Below, piece after piece: positions 2,125-32,781 of a DNA stretch of 64,000 nt. The notes beneath the pieces are model-generated. The model worked only from the letters and a program-made list of their open reading frames with translations. It made no database searches and was not told the origin of the DNA. Every line of letters starts with the position of its first letter. Within the stretch, counting starts at the first letter, position 1. Source of the stretch: a candidate division WOR-1 bacterium RIFCSPLOWO2_02_FULL_46_20 (lineage in GTDB: Bacteria > Margulisbacteria > WOR-1 > O2-12-FULL-45-9). Made by a program: the position numbers and the translations under genes. The stretch is taken from assembly GCA_001771365.1 (NCBI GenBank), contig METP01000033.1, positions 11,325-75,324 of the forward strand, in the 5' to 3' direction.

Positions 2125-2226
2125 CACACCAACTTTAAAAAGATATCTGCTGCCAACAGCAAATATTTCACAGTTGTGTATTATTTATCAATGAGCGATA
2201 ATCAACTATTAAAGTTGGTGTGGGGG
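2121..2226. repeat. Perfect 16-bp inverted repeat (cccccacaccaacttt / aaagttggtgtggggg) enclosing a 74-nt AT-rich segment
   Basis: Read directly from the sequence. The arms lie at 2121-2136 and 2211-2226. The 5' arm abuts the rnpB P1 3' strand, and the 3' arm overlaps the GGGGG ribosome-binding site of the GIY-YIG gene. Confidence 0.8.
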
Positions 2227-2234
2227 CGTACCCA

Positions 2235-2489
2235 ATGTTTTATGTATATATTCTTAAAAGTTTAAAAGATAAAAATCTATATATTGGTTCAACTAATAAC
2301 CTCGAAAGAAGACTTAAACAACACAACAATAGTGAGGTTTTCTCAACAAAAAGCCGGGTTCCCTTTGAAATTATTTATTATGAAGCTTATAAAGCAGAAA
2401 GCGATGCAAGAAAGAGAGAACGAAATCTAAAATTAAGAAGTCGAGCACATATTCAGCTCAAAAAGAGGATTGAAGCAAGCTTAAAGTAG
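2235..2489 (+). CDS. Small GIY-YIG nuclease family protein
   Basis: MFYVYILKSLKDKNLYIGSTNNLERRLKQHN is the canonical GIY-x10-YIG…R…N domain. The start was moved to the second Met so that a GGGGG Shine-Dalgarno lies about 9 nt upstream. Confidence 0.8.
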   Translation: MFYVYILKSLKDKNLYIGSTNNLERRLKQHNNSEVFSTKSRVPFEIIYYEAYKAESDARKRERNLKLRSRAHIQLKKRIEASLK

Positions 2490-18813: not shown

Positions 18814-18883
18814 TCTTCTGTGTCAAGCCAAAATAGGCGCACCTTGAACAATCTTTAAATTCGTGAGAAAATTCATTGTCCTT

Positions 18884-18968
18884 GCCGCTGTGGCGGAACT
18901 GGCAGACGCGCTTGACTCAAAATCAGGTTGGGTTTACCCCAGTGTCGGTTCAACTCCGACCAGCGGCA
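18884..18968 (+). tRNA. tRNA-Leu (anticodon CAA), type II with a long variable arm; CCA not encoded
   Basis: Manual fold: acceptor GCCGCTG/CAGCGGC, anticodon stem CTTGA/TCAGG with loop CTCAAAA, variable arm TTGGGTTTACCCCAGT, T arm GTCGG-TTCAACT-CCGAC. Confidence 0.8.
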
Positions 18969-18982
18969 TTAAAAAATCTCGT

Positions 18983-19066
18983 GCCCAGGTGGCGGAACTG
19001 GCAGACGCGCTAGCTTCAGGAGCTAGTGGGGTCAAACCCGTGGAGGTTCAAATCCTCTCCTGGGCA
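18983..19066 (+). tRNA. tRNA-Leu (anticodon CAG), type II; CCA not encoded
   Basis: Manual fold: acceptor GCCCAGG/CCTGGGC, anticodon stem CTAGC/GCTAG with loop TTCAGGA, T arm GGAGG-TTCAAAT-CCTCT. Confidence 0.8.
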
Positions 19067-19176
19067 TTTGAATTTTACCGCAAACCATTCCGTGCCGCGC
19101 TGGCCCTTCTGATTATACTCAACCCTCCCCAGCGGGCGCGTACCTTCAGCCCCCACTCAAATAATTGCGCCCGCTC
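19067..19176. repeat. Direct repeat copy 1 (92 nt identical to 23170-23261, about 110 nt similar), immediately 3' of tRNA-Leu(CAG); left boundary of the R-M island
   Basis: Read directly from the sequence. tttgaattttaccgcaaaccattccgtgccgcgctggcccttctgattatactcaaccctccccagcgggcgcgtaccttcagcccccactc is identical in both copies. The following roughly 20 nt are related. Confidence 0.9.
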
Positions 19177-19217
19177 TTACCGAGTGCATTTGCCTATTAC
19201 CAAAATTTGAGGTATTA

Positions 19218-20138
19218 TTGAAATTAGGTGCCAGCATACAAATGAACGCTGAACAAGAAAATAAAGAATCAACAACCCCTCTCGCTAAATATCTACAAAG
19301 CAATGATGTTTTGCTGATGTTATATCCCAAAGACGAAAATGGATATTTTTCAGAAAGCATACAACAAAAAGATGAGATCTCAATCTATAAACTCATCAAG
19401 GATAAAAAGGAATACAAAGAAACCCTACTGATTTTTCTAAACACAAGTGGCGGGAATGTTTATTCCGCAGTAAAAATAATGGATTCTTTGAGAACAAAAT
19501 ACAAAAAGATTACAATCGCTATTCCGCAAGAAGCAAAAAGCTCCGGAACGATGATGTGCTGTGGTGCTAACAAACTCATTCTGAGCCCGATCTCAGAATT
19601 AGGGCCACTTGATAAACCGATGGTGCATCCTGACAAAGAAACGGCCAGGATATCCGCACTAGATATTGTTAAATCCATAGATGGGATGTTAGATACAGCA
19701 GAGGAAAGACAAAAGATGTTGGCAAGAGGGTTTAATGAGGAATTCGGGGTGCCAATCGAAAAAAGCCTTGTTCTTGCCAGCGAATCGACTTCAAAGCTTA
19801 TTTCTCCGATGCTATGCAGGGAAGATGTTAAATTTTATAATCAAGCGAAGCGCTTACTCGCGATAGCAGAAAAATATGGCACTGAATTATTAATAAACTA
19901 TATGCTCAAATATATTGACAAAGACAAGCTAAGGGAAAAAATCGCCTCAATGATAATTAGACGACTAGTGTGGCTATATCCTGATCATGGGTTTGCTATC
20001 AGACGCAACGAATTAAAAGAGTGGTTTTTTACTATCGAGGATTCAGAAAATATGGAATGTTGGGATGAATTGTGGAAAGAATTTGAAAAGAGCATTGAAA
20101 ATGGTGGCCGCAAATTGATCAAATTTATGGGCGCATAA
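19218..20138 (+). CDS. Clp/crotonase-fold serine peptidase-like protein (SDH / S49-like), island cargo
   Basis: LIFLNTSGGNVYSAVKIMDSLRTKYKKITIAIPQEAKSSGTMMCCGANKLIL parallels the ClpP INSPGG…A.SMGA pattern, with candidate Ser in KSSGT and His in MVHPD. A TTG start sits behind a GAGG site, with an alternative ATG at 19242. The gene is AT-rich. Confidence 0.45.
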   Translation: MKLGASIQMNAEQENKESTTPLAKYLQSNDVLLMLYPKDENGYFSESIQQKDEISIYKLIKDKKEYKETLLIFLNTSGGNVYSAVKIMDSLRTKYKKITIAIPQEAKSSGTMMCCGANKLILSPISELGPLDKPMVHPDKETARISALDIVKSIDGMLDTAEERQKMLARGFNEEFGVPIEKSLVLASESTSKLISPMLCREDVKFYNQAKRLLAIAEKYGTELLINYMLKYIDKDKLREKIASMIIRRLVWLYPDHGFAIRRNELKEWFFTIEDSENMECWDELWKEFEKSIENGGRKLIKFMGA

Positions 20139-20140
20139 TC

Positions 20141-20359
20141 ATGCACAGAACATTTATGTCAAATTTTGATACGGACGAAAAAGGCCCCAATAAACCGGCG
20201 ATTGCGCCCGGGAACGCCGAATCACCACCTATTAGTGTGACAGAGAAATTAGTACGGGAAGAAATTAAAAAACTTAGCGAAAACTCAGAAGAATTAAAAA
20301 GGCTTAAAGAGCAGATGGCTAAAAAGACAAAGCATGAAGAATCTAGTGGGCAAAAGTAG
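20141..20359 (+). CDS. Hypothetical small hydrophilic protein (72 aa) coupled to the peptidase-like gene
   Basis: Its start lies 3 nt after the upstream stop. The product is charged and Lys/Glu-rich (…EEIKKLSENSEELKRLKEQMAKKTKHEE) with no recognisable family. Confidence 0.35.
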   Translation: MHRTFMSNFDTDEKGPNKPAIAPGNAESPPISVTEKLVREEIKKLSENSEELKRLKEQMAKKTKHEESSGQK

Positions 20360-20380
20360 CGCCTCTAAATCTCAAGCTGA

Positions 20381-21946
20381 TTAGCAAATAGTTAATTGAG
20401 TTTCTTTGCCAGACCATTTTAAGTCGATTGATTTCAAAAGATGATTAGCCCTAACATTGCCCAGCTCTTTTGGTTCTATTTTATGCAAGCCCCCACCATA
20501 AGTTCTGCATTCACTTTTTAGCTCTCTATGAACCAGCTTATTAAGTTCGTTAAATATGATTTCTTGTTTTTTCAAATCATCAACAATATATTTATTTAGC
20601 TGCTCTTTAGGGTAAAGCATTAAATATGTATTTGTTGCAATTGCCTTGCTTTTATTCCAAACAAATCGAAATGCCTCTTTATTAGCGGAACTCCTCCCCA
20701 TATAAGTGCATAAATATAGTGCTGGTTGTCGTTTTTCTTGTTTATACCATGGATGCCTTCTACTCGGCATATATTTATTATTTATATTTTTGGCTTCTCC
20801 GCTAATTAAATAATTGTAAAGCCCAGGACAATCTATTTTAATCGCATCCAGTGATTCATTGGTATTAATTATAAATAAGCGTTGTTTTAGAATAGGGTAT
20901 CCAGAATGATCGCCATTAACTATTTCACATTTTAAATAGCGAGGGCTGGGCAATAGTGGCGTGAGATAGGTAGGCCTAATGTTCAAGGAGGAAACCACAT
21001 CCTCTGTTAAAATGAAGTAATCATTATCTCCTGTTGCTATTCCCCGCCTTATGTCAAATATGTCTGACAATAGGATATCATTGTCCTTGCGCACAATGAA
21101 ACTAATATTATTAGAGAAGTGTGACCATTTTCTGGTTGGGCTCAGCTGATCCAAAGAAATTGTTTGAGTTTTATGGGGCACCATTAATGATCCACCGGAT
21201 GTAAACATAACTGATGTGTCTTTGTCAGGCTTTTTGTTCTGAAAAACAATAATGCAAGAAGACACAAGCGCATCTGCAAACTGTAGATCTTCCGGGTTAA
21301 ATCGATGAATGCGGATAAGCTTTACATTTTCAGTTAAATATTTCTTGAGCATTATGCCATAGTTGATATCCATAAAATCAGATGGCACCAACCATATGCT
21401 TATGCCATCAATATCAAGCCATTGATGGGCGCAATAAATAAAATAACAATATAAACTGGTCAATCCACTAACATTAAATCCCGTTATGCTCCTAATTATT
21501 TCTTTTAATTTATGCTTATGAGTTATATCTAAATGATGATGCCTAGAGTAAGGGGGATTTGTTATTAATAAATTATATCGTTCATTTTGTTTCGGCTGGG
21601 CTAATGTAAAATCTTGCAGTTTAACATCTAATCCATATCTACTCCAATTAGAAATAGCAATACCCGCATAACCCTTATCTATTTCAAAACCCTTTGCAGT
21701 ATTTATCTTCTTCACACCAAACGTCTTTAGTATTGCTGAAAAAAATGAGCCAGAGCCAATTGCCGGCTCAAGAAAATTAACTTTATTGCCATTTATTAGG
21801 CTGGAAGCATATATAGCGATCTCTTTTGCTAGAGACGGGGGGGTAGCATATTGGCCAAGGATATTTCGTTCTTTTAATGTTTTAAAAGAATCAATATCAT
21901 CTTGTTTTGTTAATCGGTCATTTTCGAGAAGTTCTATGGAGTTCAT
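20381..21946 (-). CDS. Gamma-class N6-adenine DNA methyltransferase (Eco57I / PstI-BsuBI-like type II MTase)
   Basis: Motif I (LEPAIGSGSF, AdoMet binding) precedes motif IV (LITNPPY). A long C-terminal target-recognition region follows. Confidence 0.8.
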   Translation of the reverse strand: MNSIELLENDRLTKQDDIDSFKTLKERNILGQYATPPSLAKEIAIYASSLINGNKVNFLEPAIGSGSFFSAILKTFGVKKINTAKGFEIDKGYAGIAISNWSRYGLDVKLQDFTLAQPKQNERYNLLITNPPYSRHHHLDITHKHKLKEIIRSITGFNVSGLTSLYCYFIYCAHQWLDIDGISIWLVPSDFMDINYGIMLKKYLTENVKLIRIHRFNPEDLQFADALVSSCIIVFQNKKPDKDTSVMFTSGGSLMVPHKTQTISLDQLSPTRKWSHFSNNISFIVRKDNDILLSDIFDIRRGIATGDNDYFILTEDVVSSLNIRPTYLTPLLPSPRYLKCEIVNGDHSGYPILKQRLFIINTNESLDAIKIDCPGLYNYLISGEAKNINNKYMPSRRHPWYKQEKRQPALYLCTYMGRSSANKEAFRFVWNKSKAIATNTYLMLYPKEQLNKYIVDDLKKQEIIFNELNKLVHRELKSECRTYGGGLHKIEPKELGNVRANHLLKSIDLKWSGKETQLTIC

Positions 21947-21947
21947 T

Positions 21948-22898
21948 TTATAACCCCAATTTAATCATATCGTCAATTCGATGCTCCCAGATCCAATCAA
22001 TTCCTTCAGCAGCTTCATATCCAAGATAACCGCTATCAAAGTACCCACACAGGAAAAGCATAAAATTAATCTTTGCCCCATAAGTATCTTTGAGTTGCCT
22101 TATTTTTGTGGCCTCCTCTTTTCGTCTTTTATTTGTATTTGTAAAATCGCCCGCAGATTTGGCCTCAATTAATATGGGGTATTGATTTGCCCCGGCCTTA
22201 TTAGGCATAATTACTACGTCAATTGGTATATTTACTTTGTGTTTATTTCCAACAGAAATATTTAATCTAAAGGTGAAAGTGCCTTTTTTCATGTTCTGCC
22301 AATCAGTAATTTCGGAGGGGGATAAATATTTATAGCCTAGTTTTTCCAAGTATTTTAAAATATTCATCAATTGACGTTGTTCTTGAGCATTCCGTATAAT
22401 CGGGTCCGCTACTGCTCCACACAATCTATCTGCGATAATTGTTGATGCTCTTTCGCACTCATGAGCATCCGGGGTTCGATCTTCTTCTAGCCAAGGAATA
22501 ATATCACTATCAATCAATTTACATATTATCGAGCATATTCTATTCAAGTATTCATCGAGGACTTTCCCCTTCATTTGAGGTGGCAATTTCCCCTCCTCCA
22601 TACTGAGTATAAGATGCTTAGCGATAGAAGTTAATCCTACTAAACGATCTCTTGCGATTGGGGGACAGGTTGACATGCGTAATGTTTGAATAATGGACGG
22701 GTGTTTTTTAAGAATAGCTGGGGTGAGCTTCTGCAGATTGCTTGTTAATTTAAATGTTTCCAGGACTGTATTTGATGTATCTTTCCTGGTTATCCTAAAT
22801 GTTTTAGGGGCAAATTTTATAAACCACTTATTATAATAATCTACCGATTCAGCAATGTCTTTTTTCCATAAGGCAGGTTTATTTGCGTTGATTGCCAT
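21948..22898 (-). CDS. Restriction endonuclease candidate (PD-(D/E)xK), partner of the MTase
   Basis: The C-terminal …PIDVVIMPNKAGANQYPILIEAKSAGD gives a D…(E)AK PD-ExK pattern. The stop abuts the MTase start (1-nt gap). The start was placed at MAINANKPALWKK (22898). The ORF tool extends to 23138 through a non-conserved Cys-rich stretch. Confidence 0.5.
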   Translation of the reverse strand: MAINANKPALWKKDIAESVDYYNKWFIKFAPKTFRITRKDTSNTVLETFKLTSNLQKLTPAILKKHPSIIQTLRMSTCPPIARDRLVGLTSIAKHLILSMEEGKLPPQMKGKVLDEYLNRICSIICKLIDSDIIPWLEEDRTPDAHECERASTIIADRLCGAVADPIIRNAQEQRQLMNILKYLEKLGYKYLSPSEITDWQNMKKGTFTFRLNISVGNKHKVNIPIDVVIMPNKAGANQYPILIEAKSAGDFTNTNKRRKEEATKIRQLKDTYGAKINFMLFLCGYFDSGYLGYEAAEGIDWIWEHRIDDMIKLGL

Positions 22899-23083
22899 GA
22901 TAATGGGGTTATTATACCATATACCAAAAGAAGAATAACAATGGCATATCAACCCACAAAAACACACTAGTGCCAGAATGTTTTTATTACAGTTTATCCT
23001 CAGAAGGATTCTCAAGAAGCGGTTTTTTCGACGTATGGGGGAGAAAAACCGCTTCTTCGACAAACCTACATTCTGTGCAAGTC

Positions 23084-23169
23084 TTTTTTCTTGCATCCAT
23101 GAATGGTGTTGGGTATAATCAATGAGATAGCCCGGCATTGAATGGTTTGAGAACCAGAGGGTCGAGGCA
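23084..23169 (+). promoter_or_regulatory. Near-consensus sigma70 promoter (TTGCAT-17-TATAAT, 23091-23119) plus a 40-nt leader gcccggcattgaatggtttgagaaccagagggtcgaggca; copy A of a duplicated module
   Basis: Read directly from the sequence. About 85 nt are shared with 30144-30228 (ttcttgca.cc.tgaat.g.gttgggtataat … gcccggc..tgaatggtttgagaaccagagggtcgaggca). Confidence 0.6.
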
Positions 23170-23280
23170 TTTGAATTTTACCGCAAACCATTCCGTGCCG
23201 CGCTGGCCCTTCTGATTATACTCAACCCTCCCCAGCGGGCGCGTACCTTCAGCCCCCACTCGCATAAATGGCGCCCGCTG
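23170..23280. repeat. Direct repeat copy 2 (right boundary of the R-M island)
   Basis: The first 92 nt are identical to copy 1. Both copies contain the stem ccagcgggcgcg … ggcgcccgct. Confidence 0.9.
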
Positions 23281-23558
23281 ACAAGTAAATCGACACGATT
23301 TATTTTTTTGCCCTTGACACTGCTGAATTCTCTGCCATATAATTCCACTTAGTGGTAAGGGGGAATTCGCTAAGATGGATCATCTATCTGTCTAAAAACC
23401 AGTCCCTCCACTTTTTAATAAGGTGCGGCCCGGATTTCTCTTCTTGACAGAGGCAAACTAAAATAGCATAATTTGTTTGTAAATGCTTCAAAGAGGGGAA
23501 CGGCGGAGTCAATCAGCCCATTTTGTGTCAGTATCGCAGATTTTCCGGGACGGTATAA

Positions 23559-24074
23559 ATGGTTAAAGACAAGATAGATCAAATACTTGAAAAGATCGAT
23601 TCGTTAGAAACCGGTCAGAAGTCATTAGTAGCCGGTCAGAAGTCATTAGAAACCGGTCAGAAGTCATTAGTAGCCGGTCAGAAGTCATTAGTAGCCGGTC
23701 AGAAGTCATTAGAAACCGGTCAGAAGTCATTGGAAACCGGTCAGAAGTCATTGGAAACCGGTCAGAAGTCATTAGTGGCCGGTCAGAAGTCATTAGAAAC
23801 CGGTCAGAAGTCATTAGTAGCCGGTCAGAATAAAAATTATGGTTTGATTCAAAAACAAGGCATCATGCTGGAACAGGTCGCTTCTGATGTAAAAGCAGTG
23901 GCGGAAGGACATGCGGCAATAAGGAATGAAATGCAAAGAGGATTTGAAGAAGTTAAAGAACAAATAAAATTCGTGGATGATAAATTGGGATTTGTAGCTA
24001 ATCAGCTTGGCGAAAAAATCGATCGCGTTGAGCAGAAACTGGACGAGCACGTCAAACTGCCAGCACATGTTTAG
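23559..24074 (+). CDS. Tandem-heptad-repeat protein (ETGQKSL / VAGQKSL, about 17 repeats) with a coiled-coil-like C-terminal domain
   Basis: Built from 21-bp DNA tandem repeats (23607-23830). Two upstream sigma70-like promoters lie at 23315-23343 (TTGACA…CATATAAT) and 23444-23471 (TTGACA-16-CATAAT). No signal peptide is present. Confidence 0.6.
   Translation: MVKDKIDQILEKIDSLETGQKSLVAGQKSLETGQKSLVAGQKSLVAGQKSLETGQKSLETGQKSLETGQKSLVAGQKSLETGQKSLVAGQNKNYGLIQKQGIMLEQVASDVKAVAEGHAAIRNEMQRGFEEVKEQIKFVDDKLGFVANQLGEKIDRVEQKLDEHVKLPAHV
23607..23830 (+). repeat. About 10.5 tandem copies of a 21-bp unit (gaaaccggtcagaagtcatta / gtagccggtcagaagtcatta) inside the CDS
   Basis: Read directly from the sequence. 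The repeat is in-frame, so each unit encodes one heptad. Confidence 0.9.
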
Positions 24075-24143
24075 GATAATTTTACCCCCCCATTCTAATC
24101 GCGGATTCTTCCTTAATCCTGCCAGTATTTTTGAGGCCTTACT

Positions 24144-24617
24144 GTGAAAAAAAGAATAAGGCCAAAGACCATGCCTGCAAATATTAAACCAAAATCTTTT
24201 CCCATCGTCGGTATCGGTGGTTCGGCTGGAGGGCTGGGGGCATTCGAGGCACTGCTTAAAAATATCTCGGCTAAACCGGGAATGGCGCTAGTCTTTATTA
24301 TGCATTTAACCCCGGGCCATAAAAATCTCCTGCCGGAACTGCTGACCAGGGTGACGAAAATGCCGGTCAGTGAAATACAAAGCGGCCTGATCCCCGAGAT
24401 CAACCATGTTTATGTCAAACCGCCCAACACCGACCTGGCTATCGACGGCAGGAAATTTTTACTTAGCACCAGGGAAAACGCCAGTATCAGACATCTGCCC
24501 ATAGATTATTTTTTCCGTTCCTTGGCGGCAGAGTGCGGCAATAGAGGTATCGGAGTTATTCTGTCCGGCACCGCCACCGACGGGACACTGGGAGCCGGGA
24601 CGATCAAGTCCGCCTGA
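24144..24617 (+). CDS. CheB-type methylesterase catalytic domain, C-terminally truncated, with no receiver domain (possible gene fragment)
   Basis: IVGIGGSAGGLGAFEALL, VFIMHLTPGH and GTATDG match the Ser-, His- and Asp-containing blocks of CheB_methylest. The final roughly 35 aa of the domain are missing, and the ORF terminates before the convergent GT4 gene. Confidence 0.5.
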   Translation: MKKRIRPKTMPANIKPKSFPIVGIGGSAGGLGAFEALLKNISAKPGMALVFIMHLTPGHKNLLPELLTRVTKMPVSEIQSGLIPEINHVYVKPPNTDLAIDGRKFLLSTRENASIRHLPIDYFFRSLAAECGNRGIGVILSGTATDGTLGAGTIKSA

Positions 24618-24656
24618 CTTCCGCACCCGCCTGAATAACTAAAGCGGTAATAAATA

Positions 24657-25886
24657 TTAACCTTGAATAATATCTTCGTTCGGATGATCCAGGGCGATCA
24701 GCAAAGCTAAATAATTCCTGAGCTTCCGGGTGATCAGGAATTTCTCCCGGACATGTTCCCGCCCATATTCTCCCATTTTTTTTGCCGCCTGGGGATTATT
24801 GATCAGATAACGGATTTGATAAGCGGTCCCCTCAATTGAATGGACAAGCAAGCCGGTGAAATTATGGATAATCTGCAAGGTGATCCCGCCGACCGCCGAT
24901 GCCACGACCGGCTTGGCTTTCCACAGCGCTTCGGTAACCGTCAGCCCGAATCCTTCCCGCAACGATTTCTGCACTATAACAGTTGACGCTCTTTGCAGGG
25001 CGTTAATCTCCAAATCCGCGTATGGCGGCAGCAGTAGAATGTGTATGTCAGGATCATTTTTAGCCGCTTCCTGCACCTGGTTCAGCACCTGCCCCCCTTC
25101 CGGATCATCGGTCGCTCCCCCGCCAGCCAGTACCAACTGGCAATCATTATGTCTCTTTACCAATTTGTAAGCTTCGATCACCCCGAGAGGGTCTTTAAGA
25201 TAATCAAACCGGGAAATTTGCGTGATGATCGGCCGCGACCGGTCAAGCTTATACTTGCGCGCGACCGTCTCAATCTCGGCAGCGGAAAGATCGCGGTTTT
25301 TTTCGGCTAACGGATCAATGGCCGGGTAGATAAAGTATTTTGGCGCGGCTAGCTTCCTGGCAAACCAGGGAGTGGAAAAGACCGAGGCGTCATATTTTTC
25401 AATATAGCCCTTGAGAAAATCCCAGACATCCGCTTGGGGATGGGAGGTGTCAATGTGGCACCGCCAGACCCATTTGGCTTTTGATCTCTCCTTGGCGGCA
25501 ATAAGACCCGCCGGCTGGGGGTCATGGACAATGACCACGTCCTCATCGAAGGACATTTCGGCAAGATTAGCTGCCGTCGTTTCCTGGAAAACCTTGAACA
25601 TTTCCGTGGAGATATCCGATTTAATCCCGTGCAGGGCGTTATGGAAAGTTTTGGTCACGCCAAAGAACGGTCCGCTCCCCTTGATCACGTCCCATTTGGT
25701 TTTAATGCCGAGCTCATTATAGAGCGGCACGACACGGGTCAGTATCTCCGCCACGCCGCCCCCCACCGCGGTTGAATTGACCATCCTGACGCGTTTACCG
25801 GCGGCTTTTTCCGCCAGCAGCATCAGTTCGTCAAAATTCTGCGGTCGGATGAAGCGAGAATATTCCGCTATCTTATTTTGAGCCAT
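24657..25886 (-). CDS. GT4-family retaining glycosyltransferase, TreT (trehalose glycosyltransferring synthase)-like
   Basis: The C-terminal EX7E motif REGFGLTVTEA is present. The N-terminal block VNSTAVGGGVAEIL…VIKGSGPFFGVTKTFHNALHG recalls TreT-type GT4 enzymes. The gene is the last in a trehalose operon. Confidence 0.55.
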   Translation of the reverse strand: MAQNKIAEYSRFIRPQNFDELMLLAEKAAGKRVRMVNSTAVGGGVAEILTRVVPLYNELGIKTKWDVIKGSGPFFGVTKTFHNALHGIKSDISTEMFKVFQETTAANLAEMSFDEDVVIVHDPQPAGLIAAKERSKAKWVWRCHIDTSHPQADVWDFLKGYIEKYDASVFSTPWFARKLAAPKYFIYPAIDPLAEKNRDLSAAEIETVARKYKLDRSRPIITQISRFDYLKDPLGVIEAYKLVKRHNDCQLVLAGGGATDDPEGGQVLNQVQEAAKNDPDIHILLLPPYADLEINALQRASTVIVQKSLREGFGLTVTEALWKAKPVVASAVGGITLQIIHNFTGLLVHSIEGTAYQIRYLINNPQAAKKMGEYGREHVREKFLITRKLRNYLALLIALDHPNEDIIQG

Positions 25887-26557
25887 TTAAATATCCTGCC
25901 GATCAAGCCATCTCTTTTCTTACGGACCAGAGCAATAATCCGGTCGCGGAGCTGGTCCATAGTGTAAATATAAGGGTCCAAAGCTTCGATCTTCTTTGCC
26001 AGAATTTCATCGCCGTAATTATCCTTGATCCAGTTTGAAAAGTCGTTGCTCCGTTTTGCCAGCCGCAGGCGCGCTTCAAAAAAGTGGAAAAAGAGGGAGC
26101 GCAGGCCGACTTTTTTCAACGCGGCGCAAAACTCATCATAATCCCAGGCCTCATACCTGGTCTTTAAAACGATACCGATCGCCCGGCAGAAATAAAAACC
26201 GCGCTTGGCCGGGACCGTCCCGCCAGCGGGATTCTGGTTTAAATAGCCGTCCAGTATCTCAACGATCTTGTCCCGTAGCGCCCCGAGTTCTGTATAGTCC
26301 TTGATATTAATATTGGCCAGACGCTCCGCCAGGACATGCTCGCCAATCTCTTCTTCCACCCAGTGGGCAAAATCGTTTGTGTAAACCCCGGGCGCGAACT
26401 GGTGTTCGCGGAAAGCGTGGTGGACGTGGTAAAAGATCGATGACTCATCTATCCCCTTCAATATTTCCCTGAATTCTTTGAGATCGCCAGCCTTCTGGCT
26501 GGTGATCTCCACCAGTTGGGAAGAGGTATAAAACTCAAAAGCTGTTTTGGCAGTCAT
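25868..26557 (-). CDS. Conserved hypothetical protein (229 aa) co-operonic with the trehalose genes
   Basis: The ORF overlaps the GT4 gene start by 19 nt. I recognise no family for it. Confidence 0.45.
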   Translation of the reverse strand: MTAKTAFEFYTSSQLVEITSQKAGDLKEFREILKGIDESSIFYHVHHAFREHQFAPGVYTNDFAHWVEEEIGEHVLAERLANINIKDYTELGALRDKIVEILDGYLNQNPAGGTVPAKRGFYFCRAIGIVLKTRYEAWDYDEFCAALKKVGLRSLFFHFFEARLRLAKRSNDFSNWIKDNYGDEILAKKIEALDPYIYTMDQLRDRIIALVRKKRDGLIGRIFKWLKIR

Positions 26558-26576
26558 TATATAATAATAAAAATAG

Positions 26577-26960
26577 TTATTCCTTGACCTTTGTTTTCAG
26601 TCTCTCAACTTCCTGCTTGAGTTCTTTAATTTGTTTGATCAAAAAGGGAATGTTCGGCTTATCGGTTTTATCTTGTGGAAAAGTTCCCGCGACGATCTCT
26701 TCAAAATTGGTGAACCGGTCCTGGTCAGAATCGATATCAGCGATCTTCGCAAAGTTATGTCCCGCGTTTTTGAAATCAAGGGCAAATGGGCCTTGCTCTT
26801 TCATTTTGCCTTTGACAGGATGGCAGGTGGAGCAGGCAGCTAGTTTTGTCCCTGCGGCATCCGGATAATTCTTTTTGAAGGATTCAAGATATTTAGGCGT
26901 AGCAAAAAGAGCGGAACTTGAAAAAATAGAAATCAGACTCACTAATAAAAGAAAACGCAT
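26577..26960 (-). CDS. Small secreted protein with a single CxxCH heme-c-like motif and a DxDxD Ca-binding-like (dockerin/EF-hand-like) segment
   Basis: The signal peptide is MRFLLLVSLISIFSSSALFA. The motifs are AACSTCHP and DIDSDQDRFTNFEEI. The C-terminus is a coiled coil (KQIKELKQEVERLKTKVKE). Confidence 0.45.
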   Translation of the reverse strand: MRFLLLVSLISIFSSSALFATPKYLESFKKNYPDAAGTKLAACSTCHPVKGKMKEQGPFALDFKNAGHNFAKIADIDSDQDRFTNFEEIVAGTFPQDKTDKPNIPFLIKQIKELKQEVERLKTKVKE

Positions 26961-26971
26961 AACTCCCCCCT

Positions 26972-27688
26972 TTATTTATCAACTAAACATAAAAGAAAAC
27001 GGTAAACTGCCGCGACATTAGCCAAATGGCCGTCAACCAGGCTACCTCCGCCGAACCCCACCTTAATAGAAAAACCCACCCCCTTTAACGCCCTAAAGGC
27101 GTCTTCATCAGTCTTATCGTCGCCGATATAAACAGGAGCATATTTTTGCAGCTTCAGGTTTTTAATAAGCCAGCGTACCGCCTTCCCTTTATCCCAATCA
27201 GCCGGCGGGCGGACATCAAATATTTTTTTGCCGGTCGTTATCTTAATGGCACGCCGCCACGGTTTAAGCGCCAGCTTAAAATCCCTTTTGAAAGCATGGA
27301 TAGCTGACATGGCAAGTGAGCGATAATGGACGCTAAGGGTCAAGCCTTTATCTTCAATCAATAAGCCCCGGTAATGGAGTTTGTTCTTAAGTTCGGCTTT
27401 GATCTTTTTTAGCAGCGGAAGTGTTTTTTTTGCGGCCGGATGCACCCAATGCTTCCCGCTGGCCAATATCTCAAACCCGTGGTTGCCAACATAAATAATA
27501 TTACGGATACCAGCCAGTCTTTTGACAACCGATAACTTACGGCCGGAGATGATCGCCAATTTAATTTCGGGATGGCGGGCTAACCGTTTGAGCAGTTTTT
27601 TTCTGGGCGCGGACAGGACTGCCCGTTGCGGATTTTCGACGATAGGCGTCAGCGTTCCGTCATAATCGAGCATCAGGAATAACTTCAT
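26972..27688 (-). CDS. otsB: Trehalose-6-phosphate phosphatase (HAD-IIB)
   Basis: Carries LMLDYDGTLTP (HAD motif I) and IGDDKTDEDAFRAL (T6PP motif). The start was placed at MKLFLM, which immediately abuts the otsA stop. Confidence 0.8.
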   Translation of the reverse strand: MKLFLMLDYDGTLTPIVENPQRAVLSAPRKKLLKRLARHPEIKLAIISGRKLSVVKRLAGIRNIIYVGNHGFEILASGKHWVHPAAKKTLPLLKKIKAELKNKLHYRGLLIEDKGLTLSVHYRSLAMSAIHAFKRDFKLALKPWRRAIKITTGKKIFDVRPPADWDKGKAVRWLIKNLKLQKYAPVYIGDDKTDEDAFRALKGVGFSIKVGFGGGSLVDGHLANVAAVYRFLLCLVDK

Positions 27689-29919
27689 GTTTTTTGCAGT
27701 TCGGTCAGGTTGGTGATAATACTTGCCGCCCATTTATAAACATTGTTGTCGGCTACGACCTTACGCATGCTCTCCATGCGCCGCTTTTGTTCTTCCGGCG
27801 GCATGACGCAGGCAGTCTTGAGGCTGTCGGCAAACTCTTCGATGGCATAAGGGTTGATCTGCAGCGCTTCGGTCAGCTCCCTGGCCGCGCCGGTAAATTT
27901 ACTTAAGAGCAGGACTCCCGCCAGGTCATTCTTTGCCGCCACGTATTCTTTAGCCACCAGGTTCATACCATCGTGCAGCGAACTGACGACGCAAATGTCG
28001 CCGAGCCGGTAATAAGGCTTGATCTCCTCCGGAGTAAAGTACTCTTTTAAGTAGATTATCGGTCGCCAGGCGCCGTTGGTATATTTGCTGTTCTTTTTTT
28101 CTATCAACCGCTCGATCTCGTCCGACAGGTCGTGGTAGCGTTTGATCTTGGTCCGGCTGGGAGCGGCCAACTGCAAAAAGACGAACTTGTTCAGGTATTC
28201 CGGATATTTTCCCAGGAAACGGTCGACGGCCAGGATTCTTTCAACAATACCTTTCGTATAATCAATCCGGTCAACGCCGACGGCCACGATTTTTCCGGCC
28301 AGATCGTATTTCTCTCTTATCCGGTCGATCTCCCTGGCTTCATTGGCTGTGACCGAATAGCGTGATACCCCCTCGATGCTGATCGGGAATGGCCGGACCA
28401 GCGTTTCTTTGCCTGACCTGACAACGCTGTTCTTCTCGTTATCAACACGGCATTCCAGCAGGCGGTTGGCGGTTTCCAGAAAATTATTACAATGATATTG
28501 CACATGGAAGCCGACCAGGTCGCACCCCAGCATCCCATCCAGTATCTCTTTTTGATAAGGACAGACGGAAAAGACCTCCGGGTTCGGCCAGGGGATATGC
28601 CAGAAGAGCGCGATCGTGACATCCGGCCGCTTGTCCTTGATCATCTTGCCCAGCAGCGTGAAATGATAATCCTGGATAAAAACAAAGGCATTTTTGGCCG
28701 GCAGCTCCTCAATAACGCTGTCAGCAAACTTTTGGTTTACCTGTTTATACATCTGCCAGTCGGCTTCCCGGAAGATCGGGCGGGTGAAAGTAATATGACT
28801 AAGCGGCCAGAGGCCTTCGTTGGCAAAACCGTAATAGAAGCCGCCTTCCTCTTCGGGCGTCAGCCAAATTCTTTTTAGGATGTAGCGATTGTCTTCGGGC
28901 GGTACCCCGAGCTTGTCCTTGGAATTCACGAATTGCCGATCGGCGTTGCCGCTCCCCTGGGCAATCCAGGTTCCGCCGCAGGCCCGCATGATCGGATTGA
29001 GTGCCGTCACCACGCCGCTGGCCGGACGGACATATTTTGCCGCCCCCGTCCGCTCATCAAGCACGTGCATGAACGGCTCCCGGTTGGAAACAATAACCAT
29101 AGAGCTGTCGCCGAGTTTGGCGTTGACCAGGTCCTTTAATTTACTTTCCGTCCAGATCTCGTCCTTTTTCAATCTGATCGTGGCCGCTTCGGCCATGCTC
29201 TTTTTGGCCACCCTCAGGCTAAGGGCAACCTGCTCAACCTCACTGGCCAGCTCACCTAATTCACTCTTTTGGCTGATCTCATGCATCTTGCTGGTTTCAC
29301 CCTTCTGGAAATGTTTGAACCAAACCGTGAGCTGCCGCATCGGCACCAGAAACATCTGGCGGAGTACCAGCGCGGCAATGAGCAACAGCGAAATAACCAG
29401 CAAGACCAGCGTGATGATCATGTTCCGCCAAAAGTCCATTGACCGGGCAAAAACATAAGAGGTGTCATAGATCATCTCGACCATGCCAAGTATTTTCCCC
29501 TGGTCATCAAGCACCGGTATAATGTGGCTATAGACATAGATTTTTTTGAATTTCCCCAACAGGTCACTGGCTTCCTTGTTTTTAAGGGCATCTCGATAAT
29601 ATTCGCGCTCTTCGTCTTTCCAATCCCTGAACCTCTCCGTGATCGCTATTAATTTCCCTTCCCGATCGTAAAGCGCGCAGCCCTGGATATTCTTTTTATT
29701 CTGGAATCTCTTAACCAGACGTTGAGCCCCGGCTTGGTCATTATTGGCAAGAACATAACCGGCCGACAACTCCAGGCTTTCCGCGACAGTTTCGGCTTTC
29801 CGCTTGAGATCATCCATTAGTTTATCTTCTTCATATCTGACCTGGATAACGCCAAAAATGATGATAACCAGCGAAACGATGATGATAAGCGGCAAAGCAA
29901 AGACAATTGTTTTTTTCAT
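27685..29919 (-). CDS. otsA: Trehalose-6-phosphate synthase (GT20 OtsA domain) fused to an N-terminal TM–extracytoplasmic sensor–TM–HAMP module
   Basis: The GT20 core runs from about aa 269 (VIVSNREP…, FANEGLWPLSH, FIQDYHFTLLG, FWHIPWP). The N-terminus has TM1 at about aa 7-27, a loop of about 140 aa, TM2 (MIITLVLLVISLLLIAALVL) and a HAMP-like segment PMRQLTVWFKHFQKGE…SELGELASEVEQVALSL. Confidence 0.8.
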   Translation of the reverse strand: MKKTIVFALPLIIIVSLVIIIFGVIQVRYEEDKLMDDLKRKAETVAESLELSAGYVLANNDQAGAQRLVKRFQNKKNIQGCALYDREGKLIAITERFRDWKDEEREYYRDALKNKEASDLLGKFKKIYVYSHIIPVLDDQGKILGMVEMIYDTSYVFARSMDFWRNMIITLVLLVISLLLIAALVLRQMFLVPMRQLTVWFKHFQKGETSKMHEISQKSELGELASEVEQVALSLRVAKKSMAEAATIRLKKDEIWTESKLKDLVNAKLGDSSMVIVSNREPFMHVLDERTGAAKYVRPASGVVTALNPIMRACGGTWIAQGSGNADRQFVNSKDKLGVPPEDNRYILKRIWLTPEEEGGFYYGFANEGLWPLSHITFTRPIFREADWQMYKQVNQKFADSVIEELPAKNAFVFIQDYHFTLLGKMIKDKRPDVTIALFWHIPWPNPEVFSVCPYQKEILDGMLGCDLVGFHVQYHCNNFLETANRLLECRVDNEKNSVVRSGKETLVRPFPISIEGVSRYSVTANEAREIDRIREKYDLAGKIVAVGVDRIDYTKGIVERILAVDRFLGKYPEYLNKFVFLQLAAPSRTKIKRYHDLSDEIERLIEKKNSKYTNGAWRPIIYLKEYFTPEEIKPYYRLGDICVVSSLHDGMNLVAKEYVAAKNDLAGVLLLSKFTGAARELTEALQINPYAIEEFADSLKTACVMPPEEQKRRMESMRKVVADNNVYKWAASIITNLTELQKT

Positions 29920-30143
29920 TGATCGGCCTTCATAGGTCTTCTTCGGGCTCCCTCAATATCCGTGAGTAGCAATAGATGTTTAGCGCAAGTATGCAGGTTA
30001 GCGAAACGATCATAAATATCCAGCCGTATATGTTCATCGGAAACAACCTCCAAGGATTTGGATAATCCTTGAATCCGTTCAAATTTTATCACTTTATCAT
30101 GTGACTGTCGAATATTATTCTCAAGAATAGCCGATGTAAATCA

Positions 30144-30228
30144 TTCTTCTTGCACCCGTGAATTGAGTTGGGTATAATAAAAGTGATGGCCCGGCCCTGA
30201 ATGGTTTGAGAACCAGAGGGTCGAGGCA
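30144..30228 (+). promoter_or_regulatory. Copy B of the promoter–leader module (TTGCAC-17-TATAAT at 30150-30178 plus a 40-nt leader), oriented antisense to the 3' end of the Ca-ATPase gene
   Basis: About 85 nt are shared with 23084-23169. The sequence diverges after gtcgaggca. Confidence 0.55.
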
Positions 30229-30231
30229 AAT

Positions 30232-32781
30232 TCAATGAGCTAAAGAAACCCGCTTGACCGCTTCCATGACCCATAAGGGCAGAGTCGAGAACCCCAGAAC
30301 CAACAGCCAGCCCGTAGCGGATAAGGGTTCAGTCTTAAATATTATTTGCGCCCAGGGCAAGTGGACCACCGCCATTAACAGCAGGAAAGATACCAGCGCC
30401 GCCAGAATTAATTTTGAGTTGGTGAACACCCCCAACTTAAAAAGAGACACGCTCTGGCTGCGGCAATTAAAAGCATGGCAGAGCTGACTGCAGGAAATGA
30501 CCACAAAGGCCGCGGTCCGCGCCGCTGCCAAACCCTCCTGGCTCAAAAACAGAACAGAATAAAACGCCGCCAGGGAACAGCAGGCGATCAGCGCCCCCTG
30601 ATACAACATCAGGGCGCCGCTGCGCGGATCCAGCATCTTTTCATTGGGCAGACGCGGTGGCCGGCGCATGATCGCGGGATCAACCGGATCCATGCCCAAG
30701 GCCAGGGCCGGCAAGCTATCGGTAACTAAATTTACCCACAGGATCTGGATCGGCAAGAGCGGCACAGGGAAACCGATCAGCGCGGCCGTAAACATCAGTA
30801 AGATCTCCCCCGCGTTGCAGGAGAGAAGATAATGGATAAATTTTCTGATGTTATCGTAGATCCCCCGGCCCTCTTCCACCGCCGCCACGATTGAAGCAAA
30901 ATTATCGTCAGTGATCACCAGGTCGGAAACTTCTTTGGTCACATCGGTCCCCGTTATACCCATGGCCACGCCAATATCGGCCTCTTTGACCGCCGGCGCG
31001 TCGTTGACCCCATCCCCGGTCATGGCCACGATCTCCCCCTGACGGCGCAGGGAGCGCACGATCTGCAATTTGTCTTCCGGTGCAACCCGCGCGTAAACCG
31101 CATCGATCCCCAATTCGCGGGCTATCGCTTCCGCGGTATTTTTATGGTCACCGGTTATCATAACCACTTTTATTCCCGCTGTTTTACATTTGGCCACCGC
31201 CGCCTTCACCTCTTCCCGCGGCGGATCGATCATGGCCACGAGCCCCAAAAAAGTCAGGCCGCTCTCCAGCTCGGCCGCTTCATATTTATCCGGCAAGCGG
31301 TCCAGGCCTTTGTAAGCCACGGCCAAGACCCGCAGCGCCCGCTGGGCCAGGCTGGTGTTGGTGGCCAGGATTTGCGCGCGCTCCCCCCCGTCCATGGCAC
31401 AAACCTCCAGGACGGATTCGGGCGCGCCCTTGACATAAACCGCGAACCGGTCCTTTTCCCGGCGCACGACCGCCATTCTTTTGCGTTCGGAATCAAAGGG
31501 GATCTCTTCAACAAACGGGTGTTCGTTTTCCAACTGCTCCCGGCGCAGGCCTTTTTTGAGGGCGCAGACCACAATTGCCCCTTCGGTCGGATCGCCCAAA
31601 ATCTGATAAGCACCCTCCCTCAATACCAGTTGGGCGCTGCTGGAGAGCACCCCGCCGATCAAGGTCTTATTTAACTCTGGGTTTTCGGTCCCGATAAATT
31701 CTCCTTCAGGCGCATACCCCACACCCGTCACTTCGAAAAGAGTGCCGCCGGCCAGGATCGCCTTAATGGTCATCTCGTTCCTGGTCAGGGTGCCGGTCTT
31801 ATCCGAGCAAATGACTGTGGCGCAACCCAGTGTTTCAACCGCAGGAAGTTTACGGACCAGCGCGCCGCGCCTGACCATTCTCTGCACACCCAAAGCCAGA
31901 GCAATCGTGATCACGGCGGGCAATCCTTCGGGAATGGCCGCCACAGCCAGGCTCACCGCGGTCAAAAAGACATCTAAAATTTCTCCGCCGCGGAGCATTT
32001 CCAGCCCAAACACCATCAGCACCAAGGCACCGCAAAGATAAACGATCCAGCGGCCGAACTCTTCCAGTTTTTTCTGCAACGGAGTCGCCTCGTGCCCGAT
32101 GGATTGGATCAGGCCCGCAATTTTCCCCAGTTCGGTCATCATCCCGGTTCCCGTGACCAGGGCCCGCGCCTTGCCGGAAGCAATCGACGTACCCAGGTAC
32201 AGGAGATTGGCGCGCTCCGCCAGGGGAATTTCTTTTTCCTCTAAAGCCATGATGGTTTTTATAACCGGGGTGGATTCACCGGTCAAGCTGGCTTCCTGAG
32301 TGGAAAAATTGGGGCTGACGTATATTACGCGGGCATCGGCCGGCACGTGGTCGCCGGCCTCCAGCTCGATCAGGTCTCCGGGCACCAATTCGGCCGAGGG
32401 GATAACGCCACGCTGACCGCCGCGGACCACCCGCGCACTGGGGCTGGATAATCTTTTTAAGGCCGCGAGCGACTTTTCAGCGCGATATTCCTGAATAAAG
32501 CCCAGGCAGGCATTAACGATCACGATCCCGACTATGGCCAGCGCGTCGACCCATTCCTTTAAAAATCCGGAAATTACGGCAGCGCCGAGCAGGATCCAAA
32601 TAATAAAACCCTGGAACTGCTCCCAAAATATGCCCACCAGGCCGCGCCCTGTTTTTTCTTGTAATTGGTTGGGCCCGAACTTTAATCTGCGCGCCGCCGC
32701 CTCTGTCCCTGTCAAGCCACTGGTCAAGCTGGTCTCAAGTTTTTGGGCGGCCGCTTCCAGCGTTAATTGATAAAAGGTCAT
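30232..32781 (-). CDS. P-type cation-transporting ATPase (P2-type, Ca2+-ATPase-like)
   Basis: Carries the phosphorylation motif CSDKTGTLT and the hinge motifs TGDGVNDAPA and KGAPE. There are ten TM helices and the protein is 849 aa. Confidence 0.85.
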   Translation of the reverse strand: MTFYQLTLEAAAQKLETSLTSGLTGTEAAARRLKFGPNQLQEKTGRGLVGIFWEQFQGFIIWILLGAAVISGFLKEWVDALAIVGIVIVNACLGFIQEYRAEKSLAALKRLSSPSARVVRGGQRGVIPSAELVPGDLIELEAGDHVPADARVIYVSPNFSTQEASLTGESTPVIKTIMALEEKEIPLAERANLLYLGTSIASGKARALVTGTGMMTELGKIAGLIQSIGHEATPLQKKLEEFGRWIVYLCGALVLMVFGLEMLRGGEILDVFLTAVSLAVAAIPEGLPAVITIALALGVQRMVRRGALVRKLPAVETLGCATVICSDKTGTLTRNEMTIKAILAGGTLFEVTGVGYAPEGEFIGTENPELNKTLIGGVLSSSAQLVLREGAYQILGDPTEGAIVVCALKKGLRREQLENEHPFVEEIPFDSERKRMAVVRREKDRFAVYVKGAPESVLEVCAMDGGERAQILATNTSLAQRALRVLAVAYKGLDRLPDKYEAAELESGLTFLGLVAMIDPPREEVKAAVAKCKTAGIKVVMITGDHKNTAEAIARELGIDAVYARVAPEDKLQIVRSLRRQGEIVAMTGDGVNDAPAVKEADIGVAMGITGTDVTKEVSDLVITDDNFASIVAAVEEGRGIYDNIRKFIHYLLSCNAGEILLMFTAALIGFPVPLLPIQILWVNLVTDSLPALALGMDPVDPAIMRRPPRLPNEKMLDPRSGALMLYQGALIACCSLAAFYSVLFLSQEGLAAARTAAFVVISCSQLCHAFNCRSQSVSLFKLGVFTNSKLILAALVSFLLLMAVVHLPWAQIIFKTEPLSATGWLLVLGFSTLPLWVMEAVKRVSLAH

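Follow-up and report, generated by a model that had tools for sequence, protein, structure and literature searches.

A duplicated promoter-bearing block in a Saganbacteria contig is probably the end module of inverted-repeat-bounded cassettes inserted behind tRNA genes

Introduction

The window analysed here is a stretch of 64,000 nucleotides (nt) from a candidate division WOR-1 (Saganbacteria) bacterium, RIFCSPLOWO2_02_FULL_46_20 (contig METP01000033.1). It carries two copies, A and B, of a block made of a sigma-70-type promoter and a conserved segment of 40 nt, i.e., the putative leader of a transcript. The question raised by this locus is what such a block is: an RNA gene, a regulator, or a piece of mobile DNA. 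A sequence-only reading had put forward three possibilities: a family of small RNAs, an antisense regulator, or a portable promoter cassette as a leftover of recombination.

The comparison with related loci leads to the conclusions that: (i) copies A and B each form the right end (R module) of a cassette, the two cassettes being in tandem directly 3' of a tRNA-Leu(cag) gene; (ii) more generally, the block is probably the promoter-bearing end of non-autonomous cassettes, bounded by inverted repeats and inserted at the 3' boundary of tRNA genes; (iii) the cargo of these cassettes, as predicted from their genes, is variable and mostly defence-related (anti-phage). The third proposal came close: the block appears as a portable end module, equipped with a promoter, that recurs in a family of cassettes.

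Results and Discussion

The duplicated block

The duplication is present where it had been announced and reaches slightly further upstream: in a repeat search of the window, copy A (23076-23169) and copy B (30135-30228) align over 94 nt with 85% identity. Their terminal 31 nt are identical (23139-23169 and 30198-30228) and occur exactly twice in the window, the expected count being 0, even with 3 mismatches allowed (100 dinucleotide-preserving shuffles). Both copies have sigma-70-type hexamers within the usual 16-18 nt of each other: TTGCAT (23091-23096) and TATAAT (23114-23119) in copy A, TTGCAC (30150-30155) and TATAAT (30173-30178) in copy B, with a spacer of 17 nt in each. The promoter had been described as strong. 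Its geometry, i.e., the 17-nt spacer and TATAAT, is indeed good; its strength is unproven, because the -35 hexamer has only 3/6 matches to TTGACA and a consensus promoter scan (threshold of at least 4/6) listed neither copy.

The homology of copy A to the wider family described below extends left to 23006, giving a module of 164 nt, while the match of copy B starts only at 30127 and is devoid of the upstream palindrome. As had been noticed, copy A reads into an «island repeat» of 105 nt, the second copy of which (23166-23270) lies directly downstream. Copy B ends 3 nt short of the stop codon of a P-type ATPase gene carried by the minus strand (30232-32781).

Three other identities were considered for the block and rejected. 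(i) A long XamI open reading frame (ORF) starting at 23138 would overlap copy A. The true start is 22898, in agreement with a PADLOC match spanning residues 3-312 of 315 and with the gene calls of other assemblies (316 amino acids, aa), and copy A is therefore non-coding. (ii) The 40-nt segment was compared with tRNAs, of which it could have been a truncated copy or a 3' fragment; upon inspection the acceptor and T-arm fail to align. (iii) For a hin/fim-type invertible promoter switch, the evidence is negative: a single orientation is seen throughout four assemblies of this strain, and no recombinase was found adjacent to the block.

Related loci and anatomy of the ends

An exact-pattern scan of species-representative genomes returned 2 loci (L001 and L002). 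The degenerate pattern GAATGGTTTGA-N8-GGGTCGAGGC returned 23 loci from metagenomes, one of them (L020) being a chance match inside a gene. Further relatives were fetched through accA, 79-82% identical to the accA of the window, which itself is 100% identical to a WOR-1 protein of NCBI. Viral contigs, plasmids and phages gave zero module matches.

In L001 (candidate division WOR-1, Saganbacteria), the 31-mer is reversed and located 38 nt downstream of tRNA-Leu(cag), inside a sequence homologous to the 105-nt repeat of the window. In L002, the promoter-type block closes a 4.6-kb island that is opened by the same sequence inverted: tRNA-Arg(tcg) is followed by a perfect 21-bp palindrome and by the left-end (L) repeat at 2948, and the R end stops at 7561, the two arms of 61 nt being 72% complementary. 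Since L001 and L002 carry it inverted at the tRNA-proximal end, the «leader» is a terminal inverted repeat. Oppositely oriented repeat pairs are also found 5.4-6.4 kb apart in L009, L017 and L023, and an inverted pair in L003. The N8 block of the search pattern is identical at both cassette ends in L009, L023 and L003 and different in L002 and L025.

Imperfect inverted repeats of ~31-60 bp, the tips of which read 5'-TG...CA-3' (TGCCTCGACC...GGTCGAGGCA), form the limits of the cassettes of this family. The R module has sharp limits and measures ~165 nt; towards the tip, a 16-bp palindrome (AAGAAGCGGTTTTTTC / GAAAAAACCGCTTCTT) is followed by a T-rich tract, CTTGCA, a 17-nt spacer, TATAAT and then ~50 nt up to GGTCGAGGCA. 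The motif TGAATGGT is present twice in it, i.e., in the promoter spacer and in the inverted repeat. About 20 distinct R ends were collected: all stop at GGCA, with unrelated flanks in at least 15 contexts. Of 20 ends, 15 retain a TTGC-type -35 at 17 nt from TATAAT; in 2 of those 15, this hexamer is new and comes from an insertion that places it at the same distance. The module is thus dispersed over many contexts and genomes, each cassette being without an encoded recombinase.

The L module consists of a GC hairpin (AGCGGGCGC, a conserved loop of 28 nt, GCGCCCGCT), a purine-rich stretch and the inverted repeat of 31-60 nt, here without promoter. It is followed by spacer X, which is short, contains a hairpin, and is T-rich before reading ACCGCAAACC-ATT-GCGG. 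What lies beyond X is a tRNA 3' end (Leu-cag, Arg-tcg or Lys-ctt), replaced in four loci by a conserved region with a hairpin. Only GCA/GGCA is common to the cassette flanks and the tRNA end. An element splitting a tRNA terminator, with hairpin X and the T-run on opposite flanks, was also envisaged; it fits L002 and not most elements.

Tandem arrays with a deleted L-end repeat are found in the window and in L023, and L025 contains an internal partial R module. The deletions at tandem junctions may be due to the instability of the long perfect palindrome that the R repeat, X and the L repeat would form.

The non-coding R module has 76-90% nt identity between organisms whose rho and accA genes have 74-76% and 70-74% nt identity, respectively, i.e., it is conserved about as well as the tRNA itself. 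Copy A is 90% identical to the modules of L002 and L023 and 85% identical to copy B. Copy A being closer to these relatives than to copy B, the window copies are not the result of a recent local duplication.

Concerning the four loci mentioned above, the L end and X abut a structured-looking conserved sequence instead of a tRNA (L003 ~250-398, L009 11791-11960, L021 42-210, L023 11459-11578). It includes a long hairpin GGCGGCGACTTC...GAAGTCGCCGC, then CTGATCTTCCGCCG...GGAGGCGGCATCGACGC, and has no Rfam match; a partial copy of it occurs after X behind tRNA-Leu(cag) in L034. It may represent an RNA gene missed in annotation, or else a further element module.

Two tandem cassettes behind tRNA-Leu(cag)

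In the window, cassette E1 (~19068-23169, 4.1 kb) directly follows tRNA-Leu(cag) and cassette E2 (~23170-30228) directly follows E1. The first copy of the island repeat (19063-19167) begins in the last bases of the tRNA and is 97% identical to the second over the 105 nt. This repeat is the L module minus 44 nt, the deletion covering most of the inverted repeat: at the left end of E1, these 44 nt are missing by comparison with L001 and L002. Copy A and the left end of E2, which is island repeat copy 2, form the junction between the two cassettes, across which GAATGGTTTG (23140-23149) can pair with CAAACCATTC (23176-23185). E1 has a GC content of 35-37% against ~46% in the core flanks (composition profile).

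Empty and filled sites

The comparison of relatives at the accA-rho region shows the site with and without cassette. In L030 and L033, the accA stop codon is followed by 4 nt, tRNA-Leu(cag), tRNA-Leu(caa) and rho, and X and both modules are absent; accA, tRNA(s) and rho are adjacent in L030, L032 and L033. In L005 and L006, the cassette occupies precisely the interval from the accA stop, which is 2 nt from the R tip, to the 3' end of the tRNA. The comparison of the empty L030 and L033 with the filled L005, L006 and window thus supports an insertion at the tRNA 3' end. Since the empty sites are without X, this spacer comes with the cassette and is not the native tRNA trailer. It must be noticed that L033 contains a further R module behind tRNA-Leu(gag). 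The same search made with the P-type ATPase as anchor was uninformative, the closest homologues being 67% identical and belonging to other phyla.

Cargo of the cassettes

Different cargos are found from one cassette to another. Genes related to restriction-modification or to defence predominate among those predicted: (i) Vsr, a C5-methylase and an OLD nuclease (L002); (ii) AAA_13, AlwI and two Dam-type methylases (L009); (iii) a type III restriction-modification system (L003); (iv) NotI with a Dam-type methylase, Schlafen and an 1180-aa protein (L025); (v) radical-SAM, SNF2/ZorD-like and ParB-like genes (L023), and radical-SAM pairs (L004); (vi) Fic (L008 and L035). Other cargos are a Na/H exchanger, DUF6062 and enolase (L034), PEPCK, purC and ndk (L007), and trehalose genes in E2 of the window. 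Neither integrase nor transposase was found by Pfam and PADLOC among the predicted cargo genes of ~12 cassettes, a few short ORFs being unscanned.

Proposed mechanism and points against it

The most probable explanation is that of transposase-free cassettes bounded by inverted repeats. Their insertion at the 3' boundary of the tRNA would be due to an enzyme supplied in trans, with the ...GGCA that they share with it as the joining point. At 23166-23190, the sequence R-end-GGCA|X-L-end would correspond to the form expected of a circular intermediate or of a tandem array. E1, being flanked by near-identical 105-nt L modules, may have entered, or been homogenised, by recombination through this module. 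The promoter of the R end would be a portable outward promoter, the first ~45 transcribed nt being the inverted repeat. Its putative targets are rho or tRNA genes in relatives, the next cassette in the case of copy A, and the 3' end of the ATPase gene, in antisense, in that of copy B. Since TGAATGGT is present in both the promoter spacer and the inverted repeat, a protein binding the ends may also control the promoter.

Several observations weigh against this explanation. (i) The same cargo was never seen at two different sites; for this reason, movement is deduced from the diversity of contexts and from the empty site. (ii) No target-site duplication was found at the TGCC.../...GGCA tips of the complete cassettes (L002, L009 and L023). 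(iii) Neither a mobilising enzyme nor an autonomous element with the same inverted repeats was found among the 2 genome and 23 metagenome loci, as far as the search patterns reach. (iv) The orientation of the [tRNA + cassette] unit with respect to accA and rho varies among relatives, which homologous recombination could explain. (v) PEPCK/purC/ndk (L007) and enolase (L034) look like housekeeping genes, so that some ends could be relics marking rearrangement breakpoints. (vi) The promoter geometry is lost in 5 of 20 R ends, and the -35 hexamers of both window copies match the consensus poorly, as mentioned above.

Alternative explanations

The main rival is homologous exchange through conserved flanks. 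The modules would then be conserved «landing pads», with the tRNA, X and the L module on one side and the R module on the other serving as portable homology arms, through which cargo is gained, lost, replaced or inverted by homologous recombination, e.g., after DNA uptake, and the promoter would be kept to insulate or re-drive the flanking genes. It accounts well for replacement at one site: at least 5 different cargos are found at the same tRNA-Leu(cag) site in relatives, and the tRNA + cassette unit is polymorphic in orientation. The absence of both recombinase and target duplication agrees with it. So does the position of E1 between 105-nt direct repeats (97% identical, with the same internal deletion), as given by a Campbell-type integration or a «long target duplication». 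On the contrary, it explains neither the sharp boundary nor the multiplicity of sites: in 15 or more unrelated flanks, similarity stops at one and the same nucleotide (GGCA), and the first arrival at Leu-cag, Leu-gag, Arg-tcg and Lys-ctt tRNAs, or at sites other than tRNAs, is left unexplained. Nor does it predict ends that are inverted repeats with TG...CA tips, or an empty site entirely without X and both modules. Landing pads are thus rather unlikely by comparison with inserted cassettes.

According to a second alternative, the block is a family of small-RNA or antisense-RNA genes with a functional conserved 5' hairpin, copy B regulating the 3' end of the ATPase mRNA. In its favour are the conserved -10, the 17-nt spacer and the T-rich upstream tract. 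The 43-nt leader is predicted to form a hairpin, the base of which is the element tip, with -14.6 kcal/mol (z -2.8) for copy A and -22.1 kcal/mol (z -3.3) for copy B; for that of copy A, the remnant CAAACCATTC of the following L module offers an alternative pairing. A terminator-like hairpin follows copy A ~160 nt later (23287-23309), leading to a possible, predicted transcript of ~185 nt (z -3.7). The first plus-strand terminator-like site after copy B is ~900 nt away, hence an own terminator is not found at every copy. Moreover, the sequence beyond the 40-nt segment is unrelated between the two copies and across ~15 other contexts. Rfam in gathering mode returned no family near either copy, and in E-value mode only chance-level microRNA or lncRNA (long non-coding RNA) matches due to hairpins; with both copies, the L module and 15 related loci, only tRNAs and RNase P were returned.

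Compensatory changes had been suggested as a check for the ggtt/aacc stem. About half of the variants lack this inner stem, and the support from covariation is negligible: for 24 distinct ends, 87.8% of the cells pair vs. 86.3% in shuffles, and a two-sided change is seen in 1 of 15 pairs. This test has a low power since the search pattern fixed the 3' half of the hairpin. Lastly, the same sequence recurs, inverted and promoter-less, at the L ends, which argues for a constraint at the DNA level, e.g., protein binding. The proposal of a small-RNA family is thus very improbable.

Integrative elements typically accumulate in tandem at tRNA sites, and the array adjoins a tRNA with direct repeats flanking E1; nevertheless, the remnant of a classical integrase-mediated tRNA genomic island, with the 85-nt block as an arm-type att and an integrase since lost, is the least credible of all explanations, given that no integrase was found in ~12 cassettes (E1 and E2 included), that the direct repeat shares only GGCA (4-5 nt) with the tRNA instead of the usual 3' tRNA segment, and that the ends are long inverted repeats unlike att arms.

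Besides these alternatives, the insertion of cassettes at tRNA 3' boundaries admits a more ambitious version, which we regard as speculative and on balance doubtful. Saganbacteria would have an unrecognised, tRNA-anchored system of cassette capture, in which a chromosomal enzyme inserts multigene defence or metabolic cassettes serially at the exact tRNA 3' boundary. The hairpin-forming inverted repeats of ~31-60 bp may be its sites and the outward promoter of each cassette may drive its neighbour, i.e., the function would be integron-like with a different site logic and a different enzyme.

Comparison with known systems

Among known systems, those that come closest are MIC231 of Bacillus cereus with the related «mic» elements, the TIMEs (miniature elements derived from Tn3) and the restriction-modification units of Furuta. 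Mobile insertion cassettes carry passenger genes between two inverted repeats, without transposase gene, and their movement is presumed to occur in trans (PMC3913671). TIMEs are non-autonomous and also bounded by inverted repeats (PMC4133298). Like mobile insertion cassettes, the Saganbacteria cassettes are bracketed by inverted repeats and transposase-free, although the L-end repeats of the window itself are both deleted. They differ from mobile insertion cassettes and TIMEs in that: (i) they have no target-site duplication and no cognate autonomous insertion sequence is known; (ii) they are located at a tRNA 3' boundary, in tandem arrays; (iii) apart from the inverted repeat, their two ends are not alike, only one of them having an outward promoter.

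Furuta, Abe and Kobayashi (2010) described restriction-modification pairs without mobility genes, flanked by inverted repeats of 26-65 bp or direct repeats of more than 30 bp (PMC2853133). Their criteria for a «long target duplication» are R and M genes, an insert of less than 20 kb, direct repeats >30 bp and no mobility gene (PMC2853133). E1 agrees with this definition (4.1 kb, XamI endonuclease and methyltransferase, 105-bp repeats with 97% identity) and has in addition a long inverted-repeat tip. The cases of Furuta are single loci with repeats unique to each unit, some with 8-bp target duplications (PMC2853133), unlike the present family, in which one repeat family bounds many cargos in many genomes. 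Moreover, the 105-bp «duplication» of E1 is the L module, absent from the empty sites L030 and L033, and not a target sequence.

The resemblance to integron arrays lies in tandem cassettes without recombinase beside a fixed anchor and in hairpin-forming ends; in the proposed model, the newest cassette would be nearest to the anchor. The differences are the lack of an intI-like gene beside the anchor (the upstream genes being accA, rho or small GIY-YIG ORFs), the lack of attC R'/R'' (no GTTRRRY/RYYYAAC pair in the end modules), and cassettes that are multigenic, with their own promoters and several tRNA anchors.

The GIY-YIG ORFs just mentioned (81-89 aa) occur beside stable-RNA genes: window 2220-2489, a small nuclease ORF after the RNase P RNA; L001 291-536; L016 11128-11373; L022 9405-9671. 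In relatives, they are located just upstream of the cassette-anchoring tRNA-Leu(cag) or tRNA-Lys(ctt).

Outward promoters at the ends of mobile elements, i.e., the pOUT type of insertion sequences and Pcirc of ICEclc, read across the end or the joined ends of the circle. The predicted promoter of the R end likewise reads outward from one terminus, unlike them without a transposase or integrase gene to drive. According to the sequence-only reading, its proposals would fail if the block were part of the terminus of a known insertion sequence: the block is an element terminus and matches no known insertion sequence. To our knowledge, only the TG...CA tips are common with the ends of Tn3-type, Tn7/Mu-type, dif/Xer, attC and casposon systems, and for this reason no membership in these families is claimed. 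No description of such cassettes in Saganbacteria was found in the searchable literature.

Significance

If the cassettes are mobile, an uncultured and poorly known phylum shuffles defence genes without cassette-encoded recombinases. With regard to known inverted-repeat cassettes, the new features are the absence of target duplication, the tRNA 3' anchoring, the tandem arrays and the asymmetric ends with one outward promoter. The handle GAATGGTTTGA-N8-GGGTCGAGGCA of the end module locates variable islands in Saganbacteria metagenomes and could aid the hunt for the enzyme recognising the ends. These results are also a warning for annotation, i.e., conserved promoter-plus-hairpin blocks should not be called small-RNA genes. 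Lastly, repeated end modules would explain the breaks observed at these points in assemblies of this strain.

As regards these breaks, contigs from independent assemblies of this strain are concerned: L029 stops at copy B, 33 nt beyond the ATPase stop codon, and L028 stops within the 21-nt repeat gene of E2. Both breaks fit repeats or strain heterogeneity at these points.

Features of the window

Table 1. Position, strand and basis of the features of the two cassettes and their anchor (window coordinates).
Feature	Position	Strand	Basis
tRNA-Leu(caa), upstream of anchor	18883-18969		ARAGORN, Rfam
tRNA-Leu(cag), anchor of the array	18982-19067	+	ARAGORN, Rfam
E1 left end: spacer X (TTTGAATTTTACCGCAAACCATT) and L module	19068-19181	+	nhmmer L-module match 19078-19181; repeat; comparison with L001/L002
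E1 L-module GC hairpin, AGCGGGCGC / GCGCCCGCT	19131-19139 / 19167-19175	+	
E1 cargo	19182-23005	mixed	Pfam, PADLOC, composition
E1: ClpP/SDH-like serine protease gene (306 aa)	19218-20138	+	Pfam
E1: 72-aa ORF, between protease and methyltransferase			
E1: type II methyltransferase	20381-21946	-	Pfam, PADLOC
E1: XamI-type endonuclease	21948-22898	-	Pfam, PADLOC
R module, copy A	23006-23169	+	nhmmer (E 3e-53); repeat search; sequence; fold
Copy A: 16-bp palindrome, followed by T-rich tract before -35	within 23014-23057	+	
Copy A: predicted leader/terminal hairpin	23127-23169	+	fold
Copy A: terminal inverted repeat, ending ...GGTCGAGGCA	23139-23169	+	
E2 left end: spacer X and L module (GC hairpin 23234-23279), inverted repeat deleted	23170-23284	+	repeat, fold, nhmmer
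Terminator-like hairpin and T-run	23287-23309	+	sequence, fold
Consensus promoter TTGACA-18-TATAAT, predicted for first genes of E2	23314-23343	+	promoter scan
E2 cargo	23344-30126	mixed	Pfam, repeats
E2: 21-nt-repeat protein	23559-24074		
E2: CheB fragment, 157 aa	24144-24617		
E2: TreT-like, DUF5752, trehalose phosphatase, Cache-GT20 trehalose-phosphate synthase		-	Pfam
R module, copy B (terminal inverted repeat 30198-30228)	30127-30228	+	nhmmer (E 9e-26, model positions 68-169)

In E1, the protease and the 72-aa ORF (19218-20359) have no PADLOC match, and an unrelated trypsin-like protease is found at the equivalent position in the L001-type cassette. These two genes could be an undescribed defence or accessory module.

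In E2, eleven tandem repeats of 21 nt (7 aa) are present at 23559-23873, in an ORF that weakly matches an ice-binding beta-roll family. This gene was called with 108, 113 and 185 aa in assemblies of the same strain, pointing to a variation in repeat number or to assembly collapse. The CheB ORF covers only profile positions 1-133 of 174 and looks like a gene fragment.

The whole stretch between tRNA-Leu(cag) and rho (19068-41440, ~22 kb) contains E1, E2, the P-type ATPase gene, an amino-acid permease and a complete F-type ATP synthase operon, with a mosaic composition. No R module bounds it on the rho side. The best homologues of the ATPase (67% identical) are mostly from Omnitrophota. The segment from the ATPase to the atp operon may also be acquired, because its GC content is 50-59% against ~46% in the core.

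Other small elements in the relatives

A small palindromic insert, CCTGCCTGCCGGCAGGCAGG (relatives, e.g., GCTTGCCC...GGGG), is found in truncated tRNA-Leu copies (L011 ~760-800, L014 ~3900, L032 ~11370-11400, L034 11100-11130) and in the promoters of R modules (L005, L008 and L010). In these genomes, it seems to constitute a family of miniature repeats.

Extra copies resembling tRNA-Leu(cag) occur in L034 (11085-11290) and L035 (12340-12490). Each of them carries in the T-loop region, after GGAGGTTC, an interrupting insert of ~105 nt that is internally dyad-symmetric; they are either pseudogenes hit by a small element or tRNAs with an unusual intervening sequence.

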